From Candidatus Kapaibacterium sp. (GTDB lineage Bacteria; Bacteroidota; Ignavibacteria; Kapaibacteriales; Kapaibacteriaceae), in the NCBI GenBank assembly GCA_030833725.1, contig JAURGP010000001.1, positions 113,870-177,869 on the forward strand: a DNA stretch of 64,000 bases, in the 5' to 3' direction. The translations under genes and the position numbers were made by a program. Below the pieces are notes generated by a model. It was not told the origin of the DNA. It did no database searches and saw nothing but the letters and a program-made list of their open reading frames with translations. Shown here in pieces: positions 12,448 to 36,240 of the stretch. Each line of letters begins with the position of its first letter. The stretch's first letter is position 1.

Positions 12448-13767
12448 ATGTCCTTACCCATAGCTGTTGCCTTCATCTTAGGATTCGTGATCGGTGCTGG
12501 AACCCTTTGGGTTCTTGTAGCCAAGCGATTGCGCACACCTGCCAGCATCTCCGACACGCTCGTAGCCGATCTGCGCCATATGGAGGATACCATCAACCAT
12601 CTGCGCACGGAAGTGGAACGTGAGCGTCACGAAGGTAAGACCCTGTTCGGACAACTTGAAGCGCGGAAGCAGGAAATAGCTTCGTTGCGAGAGCAGCTTG
12701 AACAGCAGCGTAACGTTGAGGATGTGATGCAGCGGGCCTTCCGCGACATTGCCAACGAGGGATTGCTCCAGCAGGGCCAACGCTTGAGCGAGCAGCAGCA
12801 GCGCGCACTTGGAGAGGTACTGGAACCTTTTCGAGTACGCCTGAAAGAGTTTCAGGAGCGCGTAGATGCCAACCAGCAGGTGGCTGTTCAAACGAATGCC
12901 GAATTGATGGAGCGCATTCGTACGCTCACGGACTTGAACCAGGCGGTGTCGGCCGAAGCGCAGAATCTTACGCGCGCACTTAAAGGCGACAACAAAGCCG
13001 CGGGAACATGGGGCGAGGTAGTATTGGACCGTATTCTCGAGGCAAGCGGGCTAACGAAGGAGCTGAACTATCGCACTCAGCACACCACCACAAACGTGGA
13101 TGGCGTTACGATCAAGCCAGATGTGATTGTTGATCTTCCCGATCACAAACACATCATCATCGACTCGAAACTCTCGCTCCAGGCCTACGATCGGTATAGT
13201 AGTCTGGACGATGGTGCACCGGGCAAGGAGGATGCCCTCAGAGCCCATGTGAACTCGATCAAGCAACACATTGCCGGACTCTCGGAGAAGCACTACCACA
13301 CCGGAGCTGGCCTGAACAGCCCGGAGTTCGTGCTCATGTTCTTCCCGGTGGAGCCCACGTTCTCGGCAACAATCGGTAACACGGACCTGTACGAGTATGC
13401 GTGGGAGCGGCACATCGTGATGGTAAGTCCCAGCACTCTCCTTGCCACGCTCAGAACAATTGCATCGATGTGGCGCATCGAGCATCAGAATCAGAATGCG
13501 CTGGACATCGCTGCACGCGCCGGGAAACTGTACGACAAGTTTGTGAACTTCGTTGCGGATCTGGAGGCGATCCGCGCAGGCGTTCAGAAAACGGAGAAGA
13601 GCGTGGACGACGCCTTCAACAAGCTGATTTCTGGAAGCGGAAACCTGATCGGTCAGGTGGAAAAGCTCAAGAGCTTGGGGGCAAAAGCACAGAAGCAGTT
13701 GCCGCGGCAACTGCTTCTTGAAGGTGACGGTCTTGAGGAAGAAAACCCTACAGAGCCTATGATGTAG
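12448..13767 (+). CDS. rmuC: DNA recombination protein RmuC
   Basis: 439 aa. N-terminal TM, long coiled-coil region, then conserved RmuC C-terminal domain. Confidence 0.8.
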   Translation: MSLPIAVAFILGFVIGAGTLWVLVAKRLRTPASISDTLVADLRHMEDTINHLRTEVERERHEGKTLFGQLEARKQEIASLREQLEQQRNVEDVMQRAFRDIANEGLLQQGQRLSEQQQRALGEVLEPFRVRLKEFQERVDANQQVAVQTNAELMERIRTLTDLNQAVSAEAQNLTRALKGDNKAAGTWGEVVLDRILEASGLTKELNYRTQHTTTNVDGVTIKPDVIVDLPDHKHIIIDSKLSLQAYDRYSSLDDGAPGKEDALRAHVNSIKQHIAGLSEKHYHTGAGLNSPEFVLMFFPVEPTFSATIGNTDLYEYAWERHIVMVSPSTLLATLRTIASMWRIEHQNQNALDIAARAGKLYDKFVNFVADLEAIRAGVQKTEKSVDDAFNKLISGSGNLIGQVEKLKSLGAKAQKQLPRQLLLEGDGLEEENPTEPMM

Positions 13768-14647
13768 CCACAGAGGTTCCCTCTTGATGCATCTGCTTTA
13801 TCCGCTCCAATCGCATCGACTTCGTCCGAAACTTCGGCACGAAGGGGGCTAGGAAGTACACACGGATAATGTACCACCAGAAACTCCGCTCGATCAGAGC
13901 TGGGTCGATCTTGTCGGCTACTTCGGCATGCAGCTCTGGAGCCTTGCTCCAGTGCGAGCCGGCTTTGTCGTGGTGGACGGTATGGAATCCGTTGTTGAAG
14001 AGCATTTTGTTCAGGAAGCCGGTGAAGTTCCGTGAGTGGTTGTACACGGACTCTTCGTCGGCATGGACGTGCTGGACGTAGTTGAAGACGAGAACGCTAA
14101 ACAAACCCACCTGCTGTGGAATGATCACGTACAGAAGAGCCTTCTGCCAGTCCAGGATCAGAAAGGTGATGATCCACACCGCCAACGCAACGTACTGACC
14201 GAAGGCCAACCAGAACTTGCGGCGATCACCTCTCCAGAGGTTACGGAGATAGTCGCGGATGGGCTTCTGTTGGTAGTACGAGCTCATCGTTGGGTACAGC
14301 AACAGCATCAGCAGTGTGTTATTCTCCGTGAGGCGATACGTAATGGTGTAGTCGCCCTCGCGATTGTTCATGCGATGGTGGTTCATGTTGTGCGTAGGGA
14401 TCCACGCAAAGGCTGGGAAGCCATAGAACACCGTTAACCAGTAATCGGTCAGGTGGTTCAGGAATGGCTTCTTCCAGATGGGTAGGTGGTTGTGGTTATG
14501 CGCAATCACCGTGACGGCAATCGACAGAAAGAGATACAGAACGTAGAGCACGGGATGAAATCCCACCACGGTCCACTGAAGCGCAAACACTGCGGTAGTC
14601 ACGAGCATGTAGGCCACTGTTCGCAGATCGGCCTGATATCGAAGCAT
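13757..14647 (-). CDS. membrane fatty-acid desaturase family protein
   Basis: 296 aa, multi-TM. Histidine boxes HNHNH, HNMNHH and HTVHH. Confidence 0.7.
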   Translation of the reverse strand: MLRYQADLRTVAYMLVTTAVFALQWTVVGFHPVLYVLYLFLSIAVTVIAHNHNHLPIWKKPFLNHLTDYWLTVFYGFPAFAWIPTHNMNHHRMNNREGDYTITYRLTENNTLLMLLLYPTMSSYYQQKPIRDYLRNLWRGDRRKFWLAFGQYVALAVWIITFLILDWQKALLYVIIPQQVGLFSVLVFNYVQHVHADEESVYNHSRNFTGFLNKMLFNNGFHTVHHDKAGSHWSKAPELHAEVADKIDPALIERSFWWYIIRVYFLAPFVPKFRTKSMRLERIKQMHQEGTSVATS

Positions 14648-22600: not shown

Positions 22601-22628
22601 CGCCGGGAAAAGGTTTTCCCGGCGTCGT
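22585..22628. repeat. palindromic GC-rich element copy A: CGACGCCGGGcgtGACGCCGGGAAAAGGTTTTCCCGGCGTCGTC
   Basis: Read directly from the sequence. Perfect 28-bp hairpin core plus a third direct half-site. The stop codon TGA of the upstream membrane-protein gene lies inside the element. Confidence 0.8.
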
Positions 22629-23196: not shown

Positions 23197-23236
23197 GTTG
23201 CCGGGAAAAGGTTTTCCCGGCAACTCTCCCGGCAAC
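23197..23236. repeat. palindromic element copy B with compensatory arm variant: GTTGCCGGGAAAAGGTTTTCCCGGCAACtctCCCGGCAAC
   Basis: Same architecture as copy A, but all three arms read GTTGCC/GGCAAC instead of GACGCC/GGCGTC. Lies between convergent genes (membrane protein and histone H1-like gene). Confidence 0.75.
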
Positions 23237-25679: not shown

Positions 25680-26093
25680 TTACTTCACATACTGCTGCAC
25701 CACGTAGATGCAGGTGTCCTCGATGTACGTTACACCGGCTTCAGCGCAACGGCGAGCCCCATGCTGACTGGTGATTCCAAGCTGTAACCAGATGCAGTGA
25801 ATGTCACCCCGCTGGGCCCGACGTTCCAACGCTGCCTCGATGATCGCGTCCGTATCAGAGGATGGTCGAAACACATTGAGAATGTCGATGTCCATCCCTA
25901 CATCGTTGATGGTTGCGACCACCGGAATTGAGCCTACACTCGGTACGGCTGAGGGGTTGATACCCACGACAGAATAGCCCCACTGCGGCAGAAGCTGAGG
26001 TATGTCGTGCGCGGATTTACCGGGATTCTTTGACAAACCAACCACGGCAATGTTCCGGGCGTTACGGAGGGTTGTGATTGCAAGATCTAGCAT
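25680..26093 (-). CDS. CoA-binding domain protein (YccU/YneT-like)
   Basis: 137 aa. NIAVVGLSKNPGKSAHD Rossmann-like CoA-binding motif. Confidence 0.8.
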   Translation of the reverse strand: MLDLAITTLRNARNIAVVGLSKNPGKSAHDIPQLLPQWGYSVVGINPSAVPSVGSIPVVATINDVGMDIDILNVFRPSSDTDAIIEAALERRAQRGDIHCIWLQLGITSQHGARRCAEAGVTYIEDTCIYVVQQYVK

Positions 26094-26125
26094 GAGTGCA
26101 AACTACATAGGACTCTCATAGGCCT

Positions 26126-26168
26126 CGACGCCGGGAGTGACGCCGGGAAAAGGTTTTCCCGGCGTCGT
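26126..26168. repeat. palindromic element copy C: CGACGCCGGGagtGACGCCGGGAAAAGGTTTTCCCGGCGTCGT
   Basis: Identical to copy A except for one spacer base. Lies in the divergent promoter region between the CoA-binding gene and crtY. Confidence 0.8.
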
Positions 26169-26176
26169 GCTCAATC

Positions 26177-27289
26177 GTGGGCATCCCGGAGCTATCTTCC
26201 CCAATGGACAGCCCCCTCAATCAACGACTCACCTTTCTAGGCGGCGGTGTAGCGGCAAGTATCTATACGATTATTGCCCGCGCTGTGTGGAGCTCTTCGG
26301 AACTGACCGTTTCGGTCATCGATCCCACTGAACAGCCCCCAGAGAGAACGCTGTGTGTGTGGGGTGCACCGAGTCCACTTCTCGAAGACGCGGTTGTAGC
26401 GCAGTGGTCGAAGCTCTGTTTTGGCTACGGTACAGACACCATCACTGTTGACCTTGACACCTGGTCCTACCGTCAGTATACGGCATCGTCGCTTCGACAG
26501 CTAGCTGAGCGAATGGGTCCCATTCACCGCATTACGGCCATGGCTGATGATCCAAGTGACGAATCTGTACTCCACCTTGACAGTCGTCCACACCAGCCTG
26601 TGTCGCAGCCTGCTTCGGTTGAGTTGCTGCAGCATTTTCATGGTCGGAGAATTCGCACATCGAAGGACATCTTTCAGCCAGACACAGCCGTGATGATGGA
26701 CTTTCGTACGGACCAATCAGACGGCATCTGTTTTCTGTACGTGCTTCCGTATAGCAGCACCGAGGCCTTGGTAGAGTGTACGGCCTTTAGTCCGGCGGTG
26801 TGGGACGTGGATCAGTACGCCCATCGCTTGGACACCTACATCGAGCTCGAGCTTGGATGCTCGGACTACGAGGTTCTGGCTACTGAGACAGGTGTGATCC
26901 CGATGAATGATCGTAGTGTCGATCGTAATCGTGGACGCAACTGGATTGTGATTGGAAGTGCTGGAGCACTCACCAAACCAACCACGGGATACATGGTGGC
27001 ACGCTGTCTTCGGGACGCTACATCCCTCTTTGTAGATGCGAAGCGCTCTGGACGCATGTCTGTACCTAGTGCGCCTCCATCTCGATTCGCGTGGTACGAC
27101 AAACTCCTCCTCAGGATCATGCGAGATGAGCCTGAGGTTGTTCCGCTCATCTTGTGGACGCTATTCAAGCGAAACCCTATTCATCGCATTCTGTCGTTTC
27201 TTGACGAGCAAACGTCACTGCGTCAGGAGGTCCTTCTGTTTCTCAGGTTACCATGGATGCCCTTTCTTCGAGCTATCGTTCGGCAGTAG
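26177..27289 (+). CDS. crtY: lycopene cyclase (CrtY/CrtL family)
   Basis: 370 aa. N-terminal dinucleotide-binding-like region. Conserved lycopene cyclase motif ICFLYVLPYS. Overlaps the downstream Blh-like gene. Confidence 0.7.
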   Translation: MGIPELSSPMDSPLNQRLTFLGGGVAASIYTIIARAVWSSSELTVSVIDPTEQPPERTLCVWGAPSPLLEDAVVAQWSKLCFGYGTDTITVDLDTWSYRQYTASSLRQLAERMGPIHRITAMADDPSDESVLHLDSRPHQPVSQPASVELLQHFHGRRIRTSKDIFQPDTAVMMDFRTDQSDGICFLYVLPYSSTEALVECTAFSPAVWDVDQYAHRLDTYIELELGCSDYEVLATETGVIPMNDRSVDRNRGRNWIVIGSAGALTKPTTGYMVARCLRDATSLFVDAKRSGRMSVPSAPPSRFAWYDKLLLRIMRDEPEVVPLILWTLFKRNPIHRILSFLDEQTSLRQEVLLFLRLPWMPFLRAIVRQ

Positions 27290-28116
27290 TCTACGTCGGT
27301 TCGGCCCTGATCCTCGTGGCCCTGACAACGCTTCTGCCATCGGCCGTAGTGGTGTTGTCCGTGCTGCTGATTTCACTGGGTGGTGTTCCTCATGGCGCGG
27401 TGGATCTCCATCTCACACTTCCAGGTGCACAGAGGTGGCGTGAGTTGGCTGTCTACCTGGTAAGCATGAGCGCTGTTCTACTAGGATGGTACCTGTCGTC
27501 ACCAGTGATGCTGGCGTTCTTTCTTGTGAACTCAGCGTGGCACTTCGGTGATTGCGACTTGTCCACACCACATGCGGCTAAGCCGGTACTTGCACTCGTG
27601 TATGGACTTGCCGTGTTGTTGGTTGTGATCAACCCTCTAGATCCATCGATCTACTGGATTCTGGAGGATTTGATTGGCCAAGCTGACCTGAGTTCCTTCG
27701 TTACCATCATCGAGCCGTACCTCGTACCGATGCGGATAATCGCAATGGTTCTTGTTGTGGCTGTGCCGGTGAGTACGAACCACACTACACGTATCGCAGC
27801 TCTTGTTCGCGGGATACTGATTGTTGGTATGGGGCTGATGGCACCGTCTCTGGTAGCGTTTACGTGGTACTTCGTGGTCATCCACTCATGGACGAGTTTA
27901 TCGCGGTTACGATTCTACGTGTCGGCTAACGAGCCGTGGACATGGCGCAGACTGATCGTGGCTGCTGCACCGCTCTCTGTGGTTACCTATGCAGGGGTCG
28001 TGATCGGTTTCCTGCTGCTGCCCATCTCGTCTCTCACGGCACTTCTCTTCGTTGCACTGAGTGCGCTCACCCTACCCCATAGCCGACTGTTCAGCCGGGT
28101 GTATGCGTCGAGGTGA
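27253..28116 (+). CDS. blh: Brp/Blh family beta-carotene 15,15'-dioxygenase-like membrane protein (retinal synthesis)
   Basis: 287 aa, 7-8 TM. Conserved His motifs GGVPHGAVDL and NSAWHFGDCD resemble Brp/Blh HGAxD and HFG boxes. Translationally coupled to crtY, which is the canonical pairing. Confidence 0.55.
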   Translation: MDALSSSYRSAVVYVGSALILVALTTLLPSAVVVLSVLLISLGGVPHGAVDLHLTLPGAQRWRELAVYLVSMSAVLLGWYLSSPVMLAFFLVNSAWHFGDCDLSTPHAAKPVLALVYGLAVLLVVINPLDPSIYWILEDLIGQADLSSFVTIIEPYLVPMRIIAMVLVVAVPVSTNHTTRIAALVRGILIVGMGLMAPSLVAFTWYFVVIHSWTSLSRLRFYVSANEPWTWRRLIVAAAPLSVVTYAGVVIGFLLLPISSLTALLFVALSALTLPHSRLFSRVYASR

Positions 28117-28147: not shown

Positions 28148-28843
28148 TTAGTCTTTGATACAGCGAACGGAAAAGCCGTTACCCATGTAGAATGCTCCCC
28201 GGTACACCTTCGAGGTATTCCGACCCATGTACCTCTTCCACGCAAGATTGGCGTTGCTGACGGTGGAACTCCACCAGTGCCCTAACTCACCCGCGCTGTA
28301 GAACAAGCCATTGAAGTCCACAAATCCGCTAGGCAGTCCGTGGAACCCACTACTATTCGTGCCGTTTCCGTTACCCATCCAGCCTTGGGTACTCTTCATC
28401 TTGACACCTGCCTCGGCCTCGCCACCAAGGAAGCTGGTGAGCGCGGTCCATTCGTCATCGGTGGGAATGTGGTATCCCTCAGGGGCCAGCCCACGTGGGT
28501 CCGTCACAGCATACCAGTTGTACAGCTTTCCGTGCAGACGTCCATTCGCCGAGTTGTTATCGTAGTAGCACCAGGCTGGTGTTCCGTCGGTGGCGGCCTT
28601 TTCCCACTTCTCATACGTATCAGCGTGCGGAATGGAGTCGCCGTTGCGAAACAGGGCAACATCCAGGTTGGACGTCATCCATACCTGAGTTCCGATCGCA
28701 ACCTCGGAGATCGTCGGTACTTCCGGTTCTACGGGCGTGCTACTGGTGCATGCACTCACGAGTGTGATCGCAACCACTAGCCATAGCGCAACAGAAGAGT
28801 TCAGTTTGTTCACGAGACGTATCCTGAAGGGGTGAGGTAACAC
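28148..28843 (-). CDS. FISUMP-domain (Fibrobacter succinogenes major paralogous domain, TIGR02145) lipoprotein
   Basis: 231 aa. Lipobox LVSACTSS. FISUMP-like motifs (IGTQVWMTSNL, GKLYNWYA, GYHIPTDDEW, GLFYSAGELGHWWSST, SVRCIKD). Confidence 0.65.
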   Translation of the reverse strand: MLPHPFRIRLVNKLNSSVALWLVVAITLVSACTSSTPVEPEVPTISEVAIGTQVWMTSNLDVALFRNGDSIPHADTYEKWEKAATDGTPAWCYYDNNSANGRLHGKLYNWYAVTDPRGLAPEGYHIPTDDEWTALTSFLGGEAEAGVKMKSTQGWMGNGNGTNSSGFHGLPSGFVDFNGLFYSAGELGHWWSSTVSNANLAWKRYMGRNTSKVYRGAFYMGNGFSVRCIKD

Positions 28844-28904: not shown

Positions 28905-29807
28905 TCATTCCCCCGTTAATGCAATGCGATCCTCGTACTTGTTGTAGATCACTTGGATGATGAGTCCGAACAACACTGCAGATATCACGAGGACATTGTT
29001 CAGCAGACCTTCCACATTAAAAGACAGCCGTATCAGGATCGTTGAGATAATGAAGCCAGAGTTACGAATAATCACGTGGAAGTAATCAGTGTAGAAGAAG
29101 GACACGAGAAGAAGAAGAACGTCAACAATCACTAGTAGTGTAAAGAACTCCTCAAAGAACACCCTGTTTACACCATGGAACGTCGAGGTGGCTGATGTAG
29201 GACTAGAGAACACATCCGTCAGCCAATGAACCAAGGAAACGGTCGCCAAAACAAACACAAGCGGTACTAGGGCCGTAGCGATCAGATTCTTGATCCTACC
29301 ATACGTCATCGTACCATCTTGAGTATGGTGTATTGCAGCAACTGCTGGCGTTCGTCGTCGACATAACGAAGAGAAGAGGTAGATGAGGAAGAATAGGATT
29401 AGTGTTGTGATAAGATCGTATGTGAACTGAAGGTCGTACTTGAGTGTGAACCAATCAGAGGTGATCTCAAGGTTTGCAAGGTCCTTGAAGAGCCGACGCA
29501 TGATGATCAGAAGGATGATCTCGTACTGCTTATTGATGTAGGTACTGAGAGACTTCGGGAGATAGAAAATCAGCAGGTATACTTCGTATACCAGGATGAA
29601 TGAAAACGGCGTGTAGAGTGCAGAAATCGGGTTGTTCAACAGATGTATCGTGGAGTCTAGTTTGACTACTCCGATCTGCACCAAACCGATCAGCAGCAAA
29701 TGAATAAGGAAGCTGGCGATAGCGATGATCAGAACCACACGCTCAATGCGCTCTCGCATCGCGGTTGAAAGCAATCCACCTGATTGATTACCTGGCGCCG
29801 GATACAT
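28905..29807 (-). CDS. hypothetical 8-TM membrane protein, anomalously low GC
   Basis: 300-aa ORF rich in I/L/F/Y/K/N. GC is visibly lower than in flanking genes. About 8 predicted TM helices. No recognisable family motif. Confidence 0.5.
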   Translation of the reverse strand: MYPAPGNQSGGLLSTAMRERIERVVLIIAIASFLIHLLLIGLVQIGVVKLDSTIHLLNNPISALYTPFSFILVYEVYLLIFYLPKSLSTYINKQYEIILLIIMRRLFKDLANLEITSDWFTLKYDLQFTYDLITTLILFFLIYLFSSLCRRRTPAVAAIHHTQDGTMTYGRIKNLIATALVPLVFVLATVSLVHWLTDVFSSPTSATSTFHGVNRVFFEEFFTLLVIVDVLLLLVSFFYTDYFHVIIRNSGFIISTILIRLSFNVEGLLNNVLVISAVLFGLIIQVIYNKYEDRIALTGE

Positions 29808-29878: not shown

Positions 29879-29912
29879 CACGACGCCGGGAAAACCTTTT
29901 CCCGGCGTCGTC
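29879..29912. repeat. palindromic element copy D (opposite orientation, loop AAAACCTTTT): CACGACGCCGGGAAAACCTTTTCCCGGCGTCGTC
   Basis: Lies in the divergent region between the low-GC membrane gene and the VanZ-like gene. Confidence 0.8.
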
Positions 29913-30022
29913 CGTTATGTTCAATCCATGTGGTTCTGGATACCGTCTATCGTCCGTGGACATGGAGTGTCCGATGTGCCGACGCGCATCTGGCTGACTC
30001 CTTCACGAAGATCACTTCCGAT

Positions 30023-30250
30023 ATGGGTTTGTCTGCATTGATGGTTCTCTTTGAGGGCCGACGGTGGTGGAGCAGTCAGATCTCTAGTTGGCTTACCGTG
30101 CTGGTGCCCGTCCTGAGCATGGTGATCTACGAGCTGGTCCAGACCGTTCTTCCGTGGGGCCGGTTCGATCCTTGGGATGTGGCTTGGACCTTTGCGGGTG
30201 GTGGGATAGCCCTCATCGTGAAGCGACGCTGGGAAGCTCCGGTGTGGTAA
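30023..30250 (+). CDS. VanZ-like family protein (short, possibly truncated)
   Basis: C-terminal motif RFDPWDVAWTFAGGGIALIV resembles the VanZ FDxxDxxxNxxGxxxG motif. Upstream part of the ORF is occupied by a palindromic repeat copy. Confidence 0.35.
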   Translation: MGLSALMVLFEGRRWWSSQISSWLTVLVPVLSMVIYELVQTVLPWGRFDPWDVAWTFAGGGIALIVKRRWEAPVW

Positions 30251-32926: not shown

Positions 32927-33862
32927 CTAGTCCCACGGTGTCCAGGCGAAGGCCACGGTGGGCACCACAAATGGGCCCTGCACAATCGTAAAACCGAAAT
33001 CTGATGCCACAGCACGGCTCGTAAGCCTCAATCCAAGGTAGAGAGCCGTGTTGGCTGGCCGAGTCAGGTCAGCATTCCAGAGTTCACCCACAACGTGAAG
33101 GTTGCGCATCTCAGGAAAGCGTGTGTCGAGTCCGATACCAACGCCAAAGGTTCCATTTGGTAACGGGAATGCTGATGGACCAAAGAAGTTGCCGGCCTTG
33201 ATCGTGTAGTTGTCCTTACCTGCCACCTTGGCAAACATCATGAGTGTTGCCTGCGTGCGCTTACCGGTGAACGTAGCAACACCATATACGTGGCCTAGAA
33301 AATTCACATCATTCAGCCAGCCCCCGTTGATACCAACGGCATAGTACTGTTCGCCCCCTTCAACTAATCCATGTGGAGCTGTGTGAACCGTGAATTTCGC
33401 ATTCACCAGCGAGACCTGCTCGCTCCAGGCAATTCCGGGCACCAGTGTGCGGCCGGCCGTGATGCTGAGCCAGTTGCCTACTCCTACGCCGGCATAGGGC
33501 AGAACACCCTCTATAAGTGAGATGAAGGCATCATTCCCAATGGGAATGGCCGTTGGCAGAATGTATCCTCGATGTCGGTGGCGGTAGTCTGCTTCACTTG
33601 AGTAGATCGAGTGAATCTCCTTGGCATAGATTTTCGCCCTACCAACAACTGATGCAACACGCACATAGGCGCCAGTGTCATCTTCGGAGAACTCAACGAT
33701 GGCACCACTGAGAATATCGCCGTTTTCCAACCGGACAACGTAGATCTCGTCATCAATGAAGGACATACGGAGGAGTTCTTCATTTGTCATAGCTGCTGCA
33801 TTCACATGGAGCAACCAGAAGAGTGCGATGAGGCAAGCAGTAACGGTTCGTGTTGTCTTCAT
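32927..33862 (-). CDS. hypothetical secreted/outer-membrane protein
   Basis: 311 aa. Signal peptide (MKTTRTVTACLIALFWLLHVNAAA). Beta-rich alternating pattern. Confidence 0.5.
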   Translation of the reverse strand: MKTTRTVTACLIALFWLLHVNAAAMTNEELLRMSFIDDEIYVVRLENGDILSGAIVEFSEDDTGAYVRVASVVGRAKIYAKEIHSIYSSEADYRHRHRGYILPTAIPIGNDAFISLIEGVLPYAGVGVGNWLSITAGRTLVPGIAWSEQVSLVNAKFTVHTAPHGLVEGGEQYYAVGINGGWLNDVNFLGHVYGVATFTGKRTQATLMMFAKVAGKDNYTIKAGNFFGPSAFPLPNGTFGVGIGLDTRFPEMRNLHVVGELWNADLTRPANTALYLGLRLTSRAVASDFGFTIVQGPFVVPTVAFAWTPWD

Positions 33863-34965
33863 AACTCACTGAGGGCCAACTGGCCGCAGGCAGCATCGAT
33901 ATCCAGCCCCGATGAACTGCGAATCAGTACGTGCGCACCTTCTTCCCGCAGTCGATCAAGAAACCATTGGAAGCGGTCAGGGGGCGTAGGACGCAATGTT
34001 GCAGCGAAGCCAGATGGATGAGTGAAGTCGATCTCATGAAATGGGATCACGTTAATCTTGGTTGGAAACCTCCGAGCCATGCGTGCCAGACGGACAACGT
34101 CCTGCTCGGTGTCGTTCAGTCCGTCGAAGAGAATGTATTCGAAGGTGATACTCTTGCGAGTGGCGCGATAGTATTGCTCCAATGCATCCATCACCACCGG
34201 CAAAGGCCAGCGTTTGGCGATGGGCATCAATTGCTCGCGCACCCCCTGCGTGGTAGCATGAAGACTCAAGGCTAGCTTGATGATCTGGCCTTCTTCGGCC
34301 AACCGCAGGATTCCCGGTACTACTCCGGCAGTACTCAGCGTTGTTCGTCGAGGAGCAACCATGTTTGTGCGCTGATCATTGAAGATCGTGGTGGCACGCA
34401 TCACAGCATCGTAGTTGTTCATGGGTTCACCCATGCCCATGTAGACGATATTGGTGATTGGTTTCTCGGAGTGTCGCTGAGCTTGCAGAAACTGATCGAC
34501 GATCTCGCCGCTCGACAGATTACGTTTCAAGTTGAGTGTGGCCGTTGCACAAAACTCACAGCCGAGATTACATCCCACTTGGGTAGAGATGCAGAGTGTA
34601 CGTCGGCGAGGCTGTCCGTCGGCTTCTACCAGTTCACTGGGAATCAGAACAGACTCGATCGTAGCACCATCCCAAAGCGAGAACAAGAACTTCTTCGTGC
34701 CGTCGGAACTCTCTTGAACCGTTTGTAACTCAACACTCTGCGTTCGAAACTCCGTACTCAGCTGTTGCTGCAGATCAGCTGGAAGCACATGCATGGCATG
34801 CATGTCGTTGATACGCTGCACGTACAGGGCGTCGTACACCTGGCGTGCACGGTACTTCCTGATGCCGCGCTCCTCAAAGAGCGTTTCGAGTGCAGCTACA
34901 GGCCAACCCTTGAGTTCTGTAGGGCCCTTGACGCGGTCTCGCTGTGGAATAGAGGGAAGGGACAT
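33859..34965 (-). CDS. rlmN: 23S rRNA (adenine2503-C2)-methyltransferase RlmN (radical SAM)
   Basis: 368 aa. Radical SAM CxxxCxxC (CNLGCEFC) and conserved RlmN/Cfr motifs (YMGMGEP, second Cys region). Confidence 0.85.
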   Translation of the reverse strand: MSLPSIPQRDRVKGPTELKGWPVAALETLFEERGIRKYRARQVYDALYVQRINDMHAMHVLPADLQQQLSTEFRTQSVELQTVQESSDGTKKFLFSLWDGATIESVLIPSELVEADGQPRRRTLCISTQVGCNLGCEFCATATLNLKRNLSSGEIVDQFLQAQRHSEKPITNIVYMGMGEPMNNYDAVMRATTIFNDQRTNMVAPRRTTLSTAGVVPGILRLAEEGQIIKLALSLHATTQGVREQLMPIAKRWPLPVVMDALEQYYRATRKSITFEYILFDGLNDTEQDVVRLARMARRFPTKINVIPFHEIDFTHPSGFAATLRPTPPDRFQWFLDRLREEGAHVLIRSSSGLDIDAACGQLALSEL

Positions 34966-34995
34966 ATCACAAACATCGGGAAGTTGCCGCGATGA

Positions 34996-36075
34996 TCAGT
35001 CTGACAGAAGTGCGACGGCCTCTGCAGCTACGGTACTACCGAGTGCTACCCCCATGCCATTGCAACCGAACACTCTCATCGTGTGTGGTTGTATGTGCTC
35101 TATCAGCGGTTGCTTGTCGGGTCGAAATCCCATGATTCCCGACCATCGGTATTCGATACTGAATACCTGGCCTGGAAGAATGGTGGTGCGGAGCAGATCT
35201 TCTAGGTAGTGCTGAATCACATCGGTTGTTCCAAACTCAGTTGTTTCCTCTTCGGCGAAGGCAAGGTTTCTTCCACCGCCCAGCAGGACGCGATCACCCA
35301 CGTTTCGGAAGTACACGTACCCCTCGTCCATATGGAACGAACCACGCAACGGCAAGCCCCTTACCGGTGATGTCACCAGAATCTGACCTCGTCCAGGAGT
35401 GATGTCGGTGGATGGTCCCAATGGAAACGCATTTGTTGCAATCACCACCTTGCGCGCCTCGATGCGACCATTGTTCGTGGTAATGTGTGCATGAGTATCG
35501 GCGGATTGTACATCCCGCGCTTCTGTGATCTGAAAAGTGATGCCAACATCCTGGGCAATCGTCCAGAGCCGTTGCACCAGAAGCCCACTATTGATCGTTC
35601 CCTCGAAAGGTGTGCGGACCATAGCCTGGACGTTAGAGAAACCCAGCTGGTCGCAGAGGTGATCGGCGCGCTCAAACATGGTGTGCTCAAACACCGGAAG
35701 GAGGAGTTCATTCACCTCGTCCAAACGCTCGAGTGCTGGATGGTTCGTGGTAAAGATTTCGTGTCCACCATTCTCCTCGAATCCGATGGCATCGTCTCCG
35801 CAGCGCTCTCGCAGCCGCTGCAGCCCTGCCCATCGTCGCTGAACCAGATCTCGTGCACGGTCGGCCCCCATCAGGTTGATGTCGTAGGCGATCTCGCTCA
35901 GCGAACCAATGCAGGCAAAACCTGCATTCCGCATACTCGCCCCTGCCGGTGGCGCTGTCCTCTCCAGAACAAGGACGGCGTGGGACGGATGGCGCTGCTG
36001 GTACTCGATTGCTGCGGAGGTTCCGATGATACCGCCACCAATCACCACCAGATCGTACGTGCCGGGAACCACGCC
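34996..36075 (-). CDS. FAD-dependent oxidoreductase (DAO family)
   Basis: GxGxxG motif YDLVVIGGGIIGTSAA sits right at the N-terminus. No ATG is available there; a probable GTG start at about 36075 lies inside a palindromic repeat copy. The ORF as listed extends to 36159 through the repeat. Confidence 0.7.
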   Translation of the reverse strand, partial: GVVPGTYDLVVIGGGIIGTSAAIEYQQRHPSHAVLVLERTAPPAGASMRNAGFACIGSLSEIAYDINLMGADRARDLVQRRWAGLQRLRERCGDDAIGFEENGGHEIFTTNHPALERLDEVNELLLPVFEHTMFERADHLCDQLGFSNVQAMVRTPFEGTINSGLLVQRLWTIAQDVGITFQITEARDVQSADTHAHITTNNGRIEARKVVIATNAFPLGPSTDITPGRGQILVTSPVRGLPLRGSFHMDEGYVYFRNVGDRVLLGGGRNLAFAEEETTEFGTTDVIQHYLEDLLRTTILPGQVFSIEYRWSGIMGFRPDKQPLIEHIQPHTMRVFGCNGMGVALGSTVAAEAVALLSD

Positions 36076-36108
36076 GGGAAAACCTTTTCCCGGCGTCGTT
36101 CCCGGCAT
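36058..36108. repeat. palindromic element copy F, nested double hairpin: GTGCCGGGAACCACGCCGGGAAAACCTTTTCCCGGCGTCGTTCCCGGCA
   Basis: Inner stem ACGCCGGG/CCCGGCGT and outer stem GCCGGGAAC/GTTCCCGGC. Overlaps the 5' end and probable GTG start of the FAD oxidoreductase. Confidence 0.75.
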
Positions 36109-36240
36109 CGGCCCCACCTCCTGCCAAACCGTAGCCTCAATGCTAATATTGTTTACCATTTTCCCCTCCTAGTTCATTCTTCCTGTAACTTGAATGGAAA
36201 GCGAGGGTTCTTGCCCACGTACGCAATCATTGTTGTGCGA

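Follow-up and report, generated by a model that had tools for sequence, protein, structure and literature searches.

An intact crtY-blh retinal module in a freshwater Candidatus Kapabacteria species, with an empty proteorhodopsin slot nearby and a xanthorhodopsin-type opsin on another contig

The 64-kb stretch of DNA analysed here (the window) comes from a freshwater Candidatus Kapabacteria species and carries a lycopene cyclase gene overlapping a Brp/Blh-like gene, a combination expected to yield retinal, and no opsin gene beside it. What such a pair serves is the question raised by this locus. The initial annotation had offered three answers: an opsin elsewhere in the genome, a cluster reduced to a remnant, or another apocarotenoid function for the Blh-like protein. 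Its description of the pair, with a 37-bp overlap, was borne out for both open reading frames, their coordinates and their families, and only the start of crtY was moved. The CoA-binding gene that it had placed upstream and the FISUMP gene downstream were also recovered. The features of this region are the following:

25680..26093, minus strand: CoA_binding_2 gene, divergent upstream neighbour (PF13380, E 4.9e-26)
26138..26167: REP-like palindromic element (stem of 13 bp) within the 110 bp that separate crtY from its divergent upstream neighbour
26204..27289, plus strand: crtY-type lycopene cyclase gene, 361 aa from ATG 26204 (PF05834)
27253..28116, plus strand: blh, Brp/Blh-family beta-carotene 15,15'-dioxygenase gene, ATG start, 287 aa (TIGR03753, PF15461)
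28148..28843, minus strand: FISUMP-domain lipoprotein gene, convergent downstream neighbour (PF09603, E 1.3e-45; TIGR02145)
28905..29807, minus strand: gene for a conserved 300-aa multi-pass membrane protein, matching no Pfam/NCBIfam family

The longest open reading frame of crtY extends over 26177-27289 (+) and encodes 370 aa from a GTG codon. The alignment of orthologues and the gene calls of six other assemblies place the start at ATG 26204 rather than at GTG 26177. A full-length match to PF05834 Lycopene_cycl was obtained with the 370-aa frame (E 4.7e-44, 151.4 bits; cut-off 23.4), residues 20-366 being aligned to positions 4-378 of the 380 in the profile. The dinucleotide (FAD)-binding GxGxxA/G motif at the N-terminus, FLGGGVAAS, is kept in four Kapabacteria orthologues, and identity with the orthologues of this group is 53-54%. 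The protein nevertheless scores below the NCBIfam cut-offs for the TIGR01789 CrtY equivalog (49.6 vs 215.2) and for the TIGR01790 carotene cyclase subfamily (79.1 vs 209.5). Judged from its sequence, CrtY is a divergent member of the lycopene cyclase family PF05834 and, because these scores are so far below the equivalog cut-offs, it is family membership alone that suggests a beta-cyclase specificity. None of the lycopene-making genes crtE/B/I was seen within the 64-kb window. An FA_desaturase-family frame at 13757-14647, which has a Pfam match and no NCBIfam match, was considered as a possible carotenoid ketolase/hydroxylase for an antenna pigment.

The product of blh exceeds the TIGR03753 Brp/Blh cut-off (110.5 bits vs 95.25) and matches PF15461 BCD (E 5.4e-26, 92.2 bits vs cut-off 28), and these two are its only Pfam/NCBIfam matches at E<=0.01. 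A hydropathy scan found seven hydrophobic segments, several of which could each accommodate two helices, as in a predicted multi-pass integral membrane protein. His47, His97, His211 and His276 are invariant across 21 homologues. Family assignment, multi-pass character and the four histidines are common to this protein and to 66A03 Blh (UniProt Q4PNI0), a characterised beta-carotene 15,15'-dioxygenase in which His21/78/188/256 show the matching spacing; His192 of 66A03 Blh is replaced by Ser215 in the Kapabacteria protein. In a preprint, a plane formed by these four residues of 66A03 Blh is proposed as the iron site (bioRxiv 10.64898/2026.08.06.743266).

The retinal synthase assignment is thus drawn from sequence, which gives some room to a CruF-like or similar function on carotenoids or apocarotenoids. 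A different phenotype has reportedly been seen for one brp/blh homologue. Blh enzymes are moreover able to cleave other carotenoids, according to the same preprint (bioRxiv 10.64898/2026.08.06.743266). However, no profile of the CruF, C50-carotenoid or heterodimeric lycopene-cyclase-domain families was matched by the protein in Pfam or NCBIfam at E<=0.01. A grouping with CruF/C50-type proteins, which the initial annotation regarded as fatal to its Brp/Blh-like assignment, was therefore not what the profile search returned. The score above the TIGR03753 cut-off, the four invariant histidines and the lack of a match to another family argue for a true Brp/Blh protein and not a CruF-type one. The orthologues of relatives furthermore adjoin a rhodopsin gene or lie a few kb from one, and an opsin is present in the genome, as described below. 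A function other than retinal synthesis is consequently very improbable.

The two genes share 37 nt in different frames (27253..27289, +), the region of the crtY stop lying over the start of blh. The same overlap occurs in loci L007, L009, L011, L012 and L013 and is kept in every Kapabacteria orthologue seen. The genes are presumably co-transcribed and translationally coupled, the coupling being suggested by the conserved overlap alone. A sigma-70 promoter scan of the region gave 0 sites, an uninformative result since Bacteroidota-type promoters are outside the coverage of its models.

The statement that no opsin is adjacent also holds for the window as a whole: no PF01036 protein was detected among the ~30 open reading frames scanned, and tblastn of the 64 kb with PR-type and XR-type opsins (proteorhodopsin and xanthorhodopsin types, respectively), for genes or pseudogene remnants, gave nothing below E 0.4. 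The 300-aa protein encoded at 28905-29807, with its 6-7 TM segments, was tried as a novel opsin and rejected. It belongs to no Pfam/NCBIfam family, has ~8000 homologues across Bacteroidota, and the genes neighbouring its Flavobacterium homologues are unrelated to opsin or blh. Its AF2 model is mediocre (pLDDT 65) and matches no PDB fold (best E 1.7, TM <=0.26).

A second region, a few kb downstream of the pair, is defined by two synteny anchors:

33859..34965, minus strand: rlmN, radical-SAM rRNA methyltransferase gene (TIGR00048, 309.7 vs cut-off 290)
34966..34995: empty rhodopsin slot, the rlmN start and the stop of the DAO gene being just 30 bp apart
34996..36159, minus strand: DAO-family FAD oxidoreductase gene (PF01266, E 9e-42)

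In about 20 related species, the slot between rlmN and the DAO gene is occupied by a proteorhodopsin-type gene (256 aa) located 0-8 kb from crtY-blh; this is the case in L007, in L013 and in nearly all of 24 Kapabacteria loci. The PR-crtY-blh clusters of L007 and L013 have the same two enzymes, gene order and 37-nt overlap as the window, and their neighbourhood matches it as well, with rlmN, the DAO gene, a sigma-70 gene and a gene for a 311-aa protein. Since the window has the backbone of these relatives and just 30 bp from rlmN to the DAO gene, its PR slot is empty, and the PR gene found about 7 kb away in relatives is missing. The clusters L007, L013 and L032 hold an opsin nearby, whereas the window has none in or near the pair. 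Another difference concerns the CoA_binding_2 gene, which lies 3' of blh in L011 and L032, unlike in the window. Across the rlmN/DAO junction, the independent assemblies L001, L002, L003 and L111 are colinear with the window and 98.7-99.8% identical to it.

No evidence of a relocated PR gene came from a scan of the GTDB species genomes, a collection in which the membership of this species is uncertain: the Kapabacteria PR query identified the 24 Kapabacteria loci, none of them from this species. These PR-bearing loci have at most ~70% nucleotide identity to it and lack the REP-like element. None of the accessions listed for the five Kapabacteria PR protein clusters lies within the numbering of the two metagenome-assembled genomes (MAGs) discussed below, which is weak evidence against a PR gene in them, and a literature search on rhodopsin in Kapabacteria/Kapaibacteri found nothing relevant.

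The empty slot could mean that the pair is a decaying and functionless remnant left after the loss of the neighbouring PR gene, and the rapid evolution of Blh, just 62% identical to the Blh of the sister species where the XR-type opsin described below is 98% identical, points in the same direction. Both open reading frames are nevertheless intact in every assembly, the catalytic histidines are invariant, and an identical Blh protein is encoded in 16 contigs. Within the species, seven assemblies differ in crtY by 6 synonymous vs 1 non-synonymous change and contain 0 variable codons in blh. Between the two species, at dS above 1, the dN/dS values of crtY (0.076) and blh (0.236) are well below 1, and both genes are under purifying selection. 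The presence in the same MAGs of an XR-type opsin requiring retinal also argues against decay. Of the remnant proposed by the initial annotation there stands the loss of a neighbouring opsin gene, suggested by the empty slot, whereas the pair itself is conserved and a functionless remainder is extremely improbable.

The opsin was reached through the palindromic element noted earlier in the promoter region of crtY, which proved real: the 13-bp hairpin at 26138-26167 has a folding energy of -31 kcal/mol. Five copies are present in the window (the others at 22603, 23201, 29886 and 36074), against 0 expected by chance. The element is confined to this species and its sister and was found on no other Kapabacteria locus examined. 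Used as a barcode, it led to contigs encoding an XR-type opsin, which share a 22-nt REP core with the window and carry 13 copies of the element per 20.8 kb (L137). A RAYT-family gene at L137:7641-8234 (NF047646, 82.5 bits vs cut-off 80) has REP copies on both sides; a palindrome together with a flanked Y1 transposase gene is what characterizes a REP/RAYT system, and the two may be assigned to one. Metagenomic contigs can be assigned to a common genome by means of a species-specific element of this kind.

The opsin gene itself lies at L137:10001-10789 and matches PF01036 with 126 bits. Its nearest solved relatives are the Salinibacter ruber xanthorhodopsin (3DDL, E 4.9e-86, 58% identity) and Kin4B8 (7YTB, 1.9e-80, 57%), proteorhodopsins following at 1e-25 or weaker. 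The residues His64, D96/T100/E107 (DTE motif), G159, D234 and the Schiff-base K238 were identified, so that the DTE motif, the His-Asp pair, the Schiff-base lysine and the fenestration glycine are common to the three proteins. G159, within MWGFLSTIPF, aligns with G156 of the Salinibacter protein and G153 of Kin4B8, and a glycine at XR position 156 opens the fenestration for the carotenoid antenna (bioRxiv 10.1101/2022.08.24.505090). By these features the unlinked opsin belongs to the xanthorhodopsin clade. It differs from 3DDL and 7YTB in its Kapabacteria host, in the putative status of its pumping and antenna binding, and in the position of its gene within a REP-rich region, where it adjoins the REP-associated tyrosine transposase gene.

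The link between XR and crtY-blh is made by MAG binning, co-occurrence in samples and the common repeat; no contig was found in which the two are physically joined. In MAG GCA_049428825.1, the exact XR protein (P0297) is encoded on contig JBMTAP010000009.1, and contig JBMTAP010000008.1 (L001) aligns with 20.9 kb of the window at 99.4% identity. The accessions of Blh (MFZ9869900.1) and XR (MFZ9869947.1) are 47 apart in this MAG, and 225 apart in a second one. XR is also present in all four metagenomes found to have the window locus (ERZ27296344, ERZ27296389, ERZ922568 and JGI 3300021961).

As this evidence is all indirect and the MAG contigs are short (~32-33 kb), XR could in principle have been binned from a different co-occurring organism, the species then having no opsin or using retinal in an opsin-free or exogenous way. 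This artefact is nonetheless very unlikely. Two or more MAGs of the species contain both Blh and XR, and so does a MAG of the sister species, GCA_964493635.1 (L012 and L143, respectively). The 22-nt REP core is dense both on the XR contigs and in the window, whereas the other Kapabacteria loci examined lack it; the XR contigs and the window each have a GC content of 0.55. Compared with the sister XR (L143), the gene has 98% amino acid and ~82% nucleotide identity, with a dN/dS of 0.016, and this nucleotide identity resembles that of the XR-flanking genes (73-78%) and of the window genes (77-79%). The same genome thus encodes a microbial rhodopsin, of XR type, on another contig, as the first option of the initial annotation had it, and the case that it regarded as adverse, a genome without an opsin, does not apply. 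A further opsin, for instance a heliorhodopsin, may be encoded elsewhere in the genome.

The crtY-blh pair is very probably a functional retinal module serving the unlinked XR-type pump, an earlier PR-type gene having been lost. CrtY would convert lycopene to beta-carotene by cyclisation. Blh, as a membrane iron enzyme, would split beta-carotene across its 15,15' bond, and the all-trans-retinal released would be supplied to a proton pump of xanthorhodopsin type whose gene is in the same genome but not linked to the pair. The pair itself is ordinary and intact, a known kind of retinal module and, with such a working module and an unlinked opsin present, no new apocarotenoid biology is required.

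The synteny suggests a history for this arrangement. The lineage would formerly have had a PR-type gene between rlmN and the DAO gene, a few kb from crtY-blh; this gene would have been lost and the retinal module retained at its original place. A complete exchange of opsins in this species and its sister, with loss of the ancestral PR, a fenestrated XR in a REP/RAYT-rich locus and crtY-blh kept, is somewhat favoured, the relative timing of XR gain and PR loss being conjectural. If this exchange did take place, the beta-carotene made by CrtY would serve as the source of retinal and perhaps of an antenna carotenoid as well. The locus would then be a synteny-anchored case of one opsin type (PR) giving way to another (XR) inside a single bacterial class while the chromophore pathway persisted: a modest evolutionary footnote, yet a useful one for studying the gain, loss and exchange of rhodopsin phototrophy in freshwater bacteria.

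Retinal genes unlinked to the opsin gene are found in acI Actinobacteria and other photoheterotrophs, where pathway and opsin occupy separate loci as in the present species. In the present case, unlike in acI, synteny with relatives reveals a former linkage, lost along with the change in opsin type: the opsin of this species is both of another type than that of the PR-crtY-blh clusters and unlinked. Finally, a search of a representative library (without taxonomy) with XR returned a large XR family.

As an accessory module, a crtY-blh pair is standard at proteorhodopsin-type (PR) and xanthorhodopsin-type (XR) opsin loci. The initial annotation placed such a pair, overlapping by 37 nt, between a CoA-binding and a FISUMP gene. 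This arrangement was borne out by the ORF calls, which put the two ORFs in different frames, and by the Pfam domains of both neighbours:

25680-26093, minus strand: CoA_binding_2 gene, upstream neighbour
26177-27289, plus strand: crtY-type lycopene cyclase ORF, 370 aa from GTG
27253-28116, plus strand: blh ORF, 287 aa from ATG
28148-28843, minus strand: FISUMP-domain gene, downstream neighbour

The ORF opening at GTG 26177 exists, but the gene calls in six other assemblies and the orthologue alignment move the likely start of crtY to ATG 26204 (361 aa). The Pfam lycopene cyclase model covers this whole ORF (PF05834, E 4.7e-44), whose product carries the N-terminal nucleotide-binding motif FLGGGVAA and scores well under the NCBIfam CrtY equivalog cut-offs. 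Judged from its sequence, CrtY is a divergent member of the lycopene cyclase family, with a presumed beta-cyclase specificity. The Blh-like identity proposed for the second product holds: it matches PF15461 (E 5.4e-26) and passes the curated NCBIfam cut-off for Brp/Blh (TIGR03753, 110.5 bits against 95.25), and no CruF-type or other family was matched at E<=0.01 in Pfam and NCBIfam. Four histidines (His47, His97, His211 and His276) do not vary among 21 aligned homologues that share 24-61% identity with Blh of the window, and their spacing agrees with that of the His21/78/188/256 plane, proposed as the iron-binding site of 66A03 Blh, a characterised enzyme (bioRxiv 10.64898/2026.08.06.743266). 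The alternative raised for this protein, a grouping with CruF, does not apply, because it matches TIGR03753 and PF15461 only and retains the four histidines. The 37-nt overlap and the surrounding sequence are conserved in every Kapabacteria orthologue seen, which supports a probable co-expression of crtY and blh; the two genes may also be translationally coupled.

The reported lack of an adjacent opsin was confirmed for the whole window, where no PF01036 match occurs among the ~30 ORFs scanned against Pfam and tblastn with PR-type and XR-type queries found nothing. Only five ORFs have at least five hydrophobic segments in a hydropathy screen: a SulP permease, an MFS transporter, a fatty-acid-desaturase-family protein, Blh and a 300-aa protein with 6-7 TM segments (28905-29807, minus strand) that matches no Pfam or NCBIfam family. 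The latter was considered as a possible novel opsin and rejected. It belongs to a very large, strongly conserved Bacteroidota family (~8000 homologues; from Kapabacteria to Flavobacterium and Gillisia they share 55-72% identity, and numerous charged residues are invariant), and its AF2 model (pLDDT 65) has no fold match in the PDB. Its gene lies directly downstream of blh in a relative (L013) and has unrelated neighbours in Flavobacterium, none of them opsin genes. No crtE, crtB or crtI, as a source of lycopene, was seen in the window.

An identical Blh protein was found on 16 contigs, one being JBMTAP010000008.1 of the NCBI MAG GCA_049428825.1 (L001) and the remainder including contigs from several metagenomes, freshwater ones among them. 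L001 aligns with window positions 17253-38090 at 99.4% identity, four further loci of the species (L003-L006) match at 99.4-99.8%, and L002 matches at 96-99.6% in colinear blocks. Homologues are labelled Candidatus Kapabacteria or Kapaibacterium in their source records. In a distant member (L007, a 612-kb contig; Blh 40% identical to that of the window), crtY-blh is preceded immediately upstream by a divergent 257-aa PF01036 gene, which separates the pair from a DAO-family oxidoreductase gene; a radical-SAM gene and a 311-aa gene then follow. In the closer relative L013 (Blh 50% identical), the order is crtY-blh, three genes, a 310-aa gene, radical-SAM, a 256-aa rhodopsin, DAO and sigma-70. 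This rhodopsin is PR-type, its best solved relative being 9JOV 'Proteorhodopsin' (E 1.4e-73), with xanthorhodopsin 3DDL at E 4e-21 only. Used as query over one genome per GTDB species, it returned 24 Kapabacteria-type loci at 77-100% identity, and in nearly all of them the radical-SAM/rhodopsin/sigma-70 backbone is, by blastn, arranged as in the window. The anchoring radical-SAM gene is rlmN (TIGR00048, 309.7 bits, cut-off 290). The window keeps the order and orientation of the relatives' loci without the rhodopsin:

32927-33862, minus strand: 311-aa gene
33859-34965, minus strand: rlmN
34996-36159, minus strand: DAO
beyond DAO: sigma-70 gene, then a 313-aa gene

Here the rlmN start and the DAO stop are just 30 bp apart (34966-34995), at the position where L013 accommodates ~960 bp of rhodopsin gene and flanking spacers and where ~20 related species carry a PR-type gene. 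No remnant of a PR gene was detectable in the window by tblastn. This absence is not an assembly artefact, because the junction is colinear with the window at 98.7-99.8% in four independent assemblies (L001, L002, L003 and L111). Since the slot is occupied in every major Blh clade except the window's own, we infer that the PR gene was probably ancestral and lost in this lineage.

The palindrome noted upstream of crtY is indeed present, as a perfect 13-bp hairpin at 26138-26167 (stem GACGCCGGGAAAA/TTTTCCCGGCGTC) with the invariant 22-nt core GCCGGGAAAAGGTTTTCCCGGC. Five copies occur in the window, where chance alone predicts 0:

22603-22622
23201-23220
26143-26162
29886-29905
36074-36093

Among all loci compared ahead of the metagenome scan described below, the core is confined to this species and its sister species (L012). 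The copies lie mostly between genes, and CGTC stands at the right end of the palindrome, like in the 'CGTC-tagged' REP class (PMC3733652). The palindrome behaves as a REP element. The CoA_binding_2 gene, upstream of crtY in the window (25680-27289), is downstream of blh in the relatives L011 (2715-5020) and L032. In the window, the breakpoint of this order coincides with the REP copy at 26143, a hint that the local rearrangement may have been associated with the repeat. In the 'crustacean metagenome' assembly of the same species (L002:12668-15495), a cytochrome P450, a ferredoxin, a chloramphenicol-acetyltransferase-family gene and others are inserted beside a REP copy, relative to window ~29900-30220; this assembly also has an acetyltransferase gene near the phosphoribosyltransferase gene.

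With the 22-nt core as a barcode, a metagenome collection was scanned and 41 stretches were returned. Two contigs, Ga0222714_10001987 (L115, L127) and Ga0222713_10039871 (L120), carry 12 and 4 copies, and their JGI samples also contain this species at 99.7-99.8% identity. Both encode a 262-aa rhodopsin (PF01036, 126 bits) that shares only 33% identity with the Kapabacteria PR. Among solved structures it is closest to Salinibacter xanthorhodopsin 3DDL (E 4.9e-86, 58%) and Kin4B8 7YTB (E 1.9e-80, 57%), with proteorhodopsins matching at 1e-25 or weaker. This XR possesses His64, the DTE motif D96/T100/E107, D234 and the Schiff-base K238, and its G159 occupies the position of Salinibacter Gly156, where glycine creates the fenestration that a carotenoid antenna requires (bioRxiv 10.1101/2022.08.24.505090). 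The palindrome is very dense around the gene, with 13 copies in 20.8 kb of L137. Beside it lies a 197-aa Y1 transposase (L137:7641-8234, minus strand) with REP copies on both sides, which passes the NCBIfam threshold for REP-associated tyrosine transposases (NF047646, 82.5 bits, cut-off 80); its gene is present in L137, L140, L141 and L143 and absent in L138, L139 and L142, so that assemblies of one and the same species differ in having it.

Five lines of evidence agree in placing XR in the same genome as crtY-blh, the linkage being indirect, with no contig joining the two loci. The exact XR protein is encoded on JBMTAP010000009.1 of GCA_049428825.1, and the window locus is on contig 8 of that MAG. 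The NCBI accessions of Blh and XR are 47 apart in this submission (MFZ9869900.1, MFZ9869947.1) and 225 apart in a second MAG (MGA0045795.1, MGA0045570.1). The XR contigs are densely populated by the REP element of the window and have the window's GC content (0.55). An XR contig was also recovered in 4/4 comparable metagenome assemblies that yielded the window's locus:

Blh and XR contigs by assembly
ERZ27296344: Blh L004, XR L137
ERZ27296389: Blh L003, XR L138
ERZ922568: Blh L002, XR L141
JGI 3300021961: Blh L006, XR L140

The sister MAG GCA_964493635.1 likewise encodes Blh (62% identical, L012) and XR (98% aa, in syntenic context, L143). The suggestion of an opsin elsewhere in the genome is thereby upheld, and that of a genome lacking one does not apply, since XR was found in the same MAGs and samples and in the sister species. 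XR is an orthologue that both species inherited from their common ancestor and not a recent transfer, because its nucleotide identity to the sister (~82%) resembles that of its flanking genes (73-78%) and of the window crtY and FISUMP genes (77-79%).

Seven assemblies of the species show 0 variable codons in blh and, in crtY, six synonymous and one non-synonymous change. Divergence from the sister species was estimated by the Nei-Gojobori method:

Selection between the two species
CrtY: dN/dS 0.076, dS 1.36
Blh: dN/dS 0.236, dS 1.33
XR: dN/dS 0.016, dS 0.88
FISUMP: dN/dS 0.039, dS 2.17

Constraint is far stronger on the opsin than on Blh, the enzyme that makes its chromophore (dN/dS 0.016 vs 0.24; proteins 98% identical, L137:10001-10789 vs L143:10001-10789, vs 62%). 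On these values, purifying selection acts on CrtY and Blh in a clade that has XR and apparently no PR, which is consistent with a working retinal supply and speaks against the decaying remnant that had been offered as an explanation of the cluster. Family membership, conserved ligands, selection, gene order and opsin co-occurrence are established here; by family function, CrtY would convert lycopene to beta-carotene, Blh, as an iron-dependent membrane dioxygenase, would cleave it at C15-C15' into two molecules of all-trans-retinal, and retinal would bind Lys238 of the putative XR-type pump. It is common for retinal genes to be unlinked. Less ordinary, in evolutionary terms, is a conserved PR slot found empty with the retinal module still nearby and the other opsin type at a REP-rich locus; a swap from PR to XR in the window lineage is judged to lie slightly on the probable side.

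A 296-aa fatty-acid-desaturase-family membrane protein is also encoded in the window (13757-14647, minus strand; PF00487 match, no NCBIfam match). It may act as an ordinary lipid desaturase, or as a carotenoid ketolase/hydroxylase-type enzyme with a bearing on a possible XR antenna pigment.
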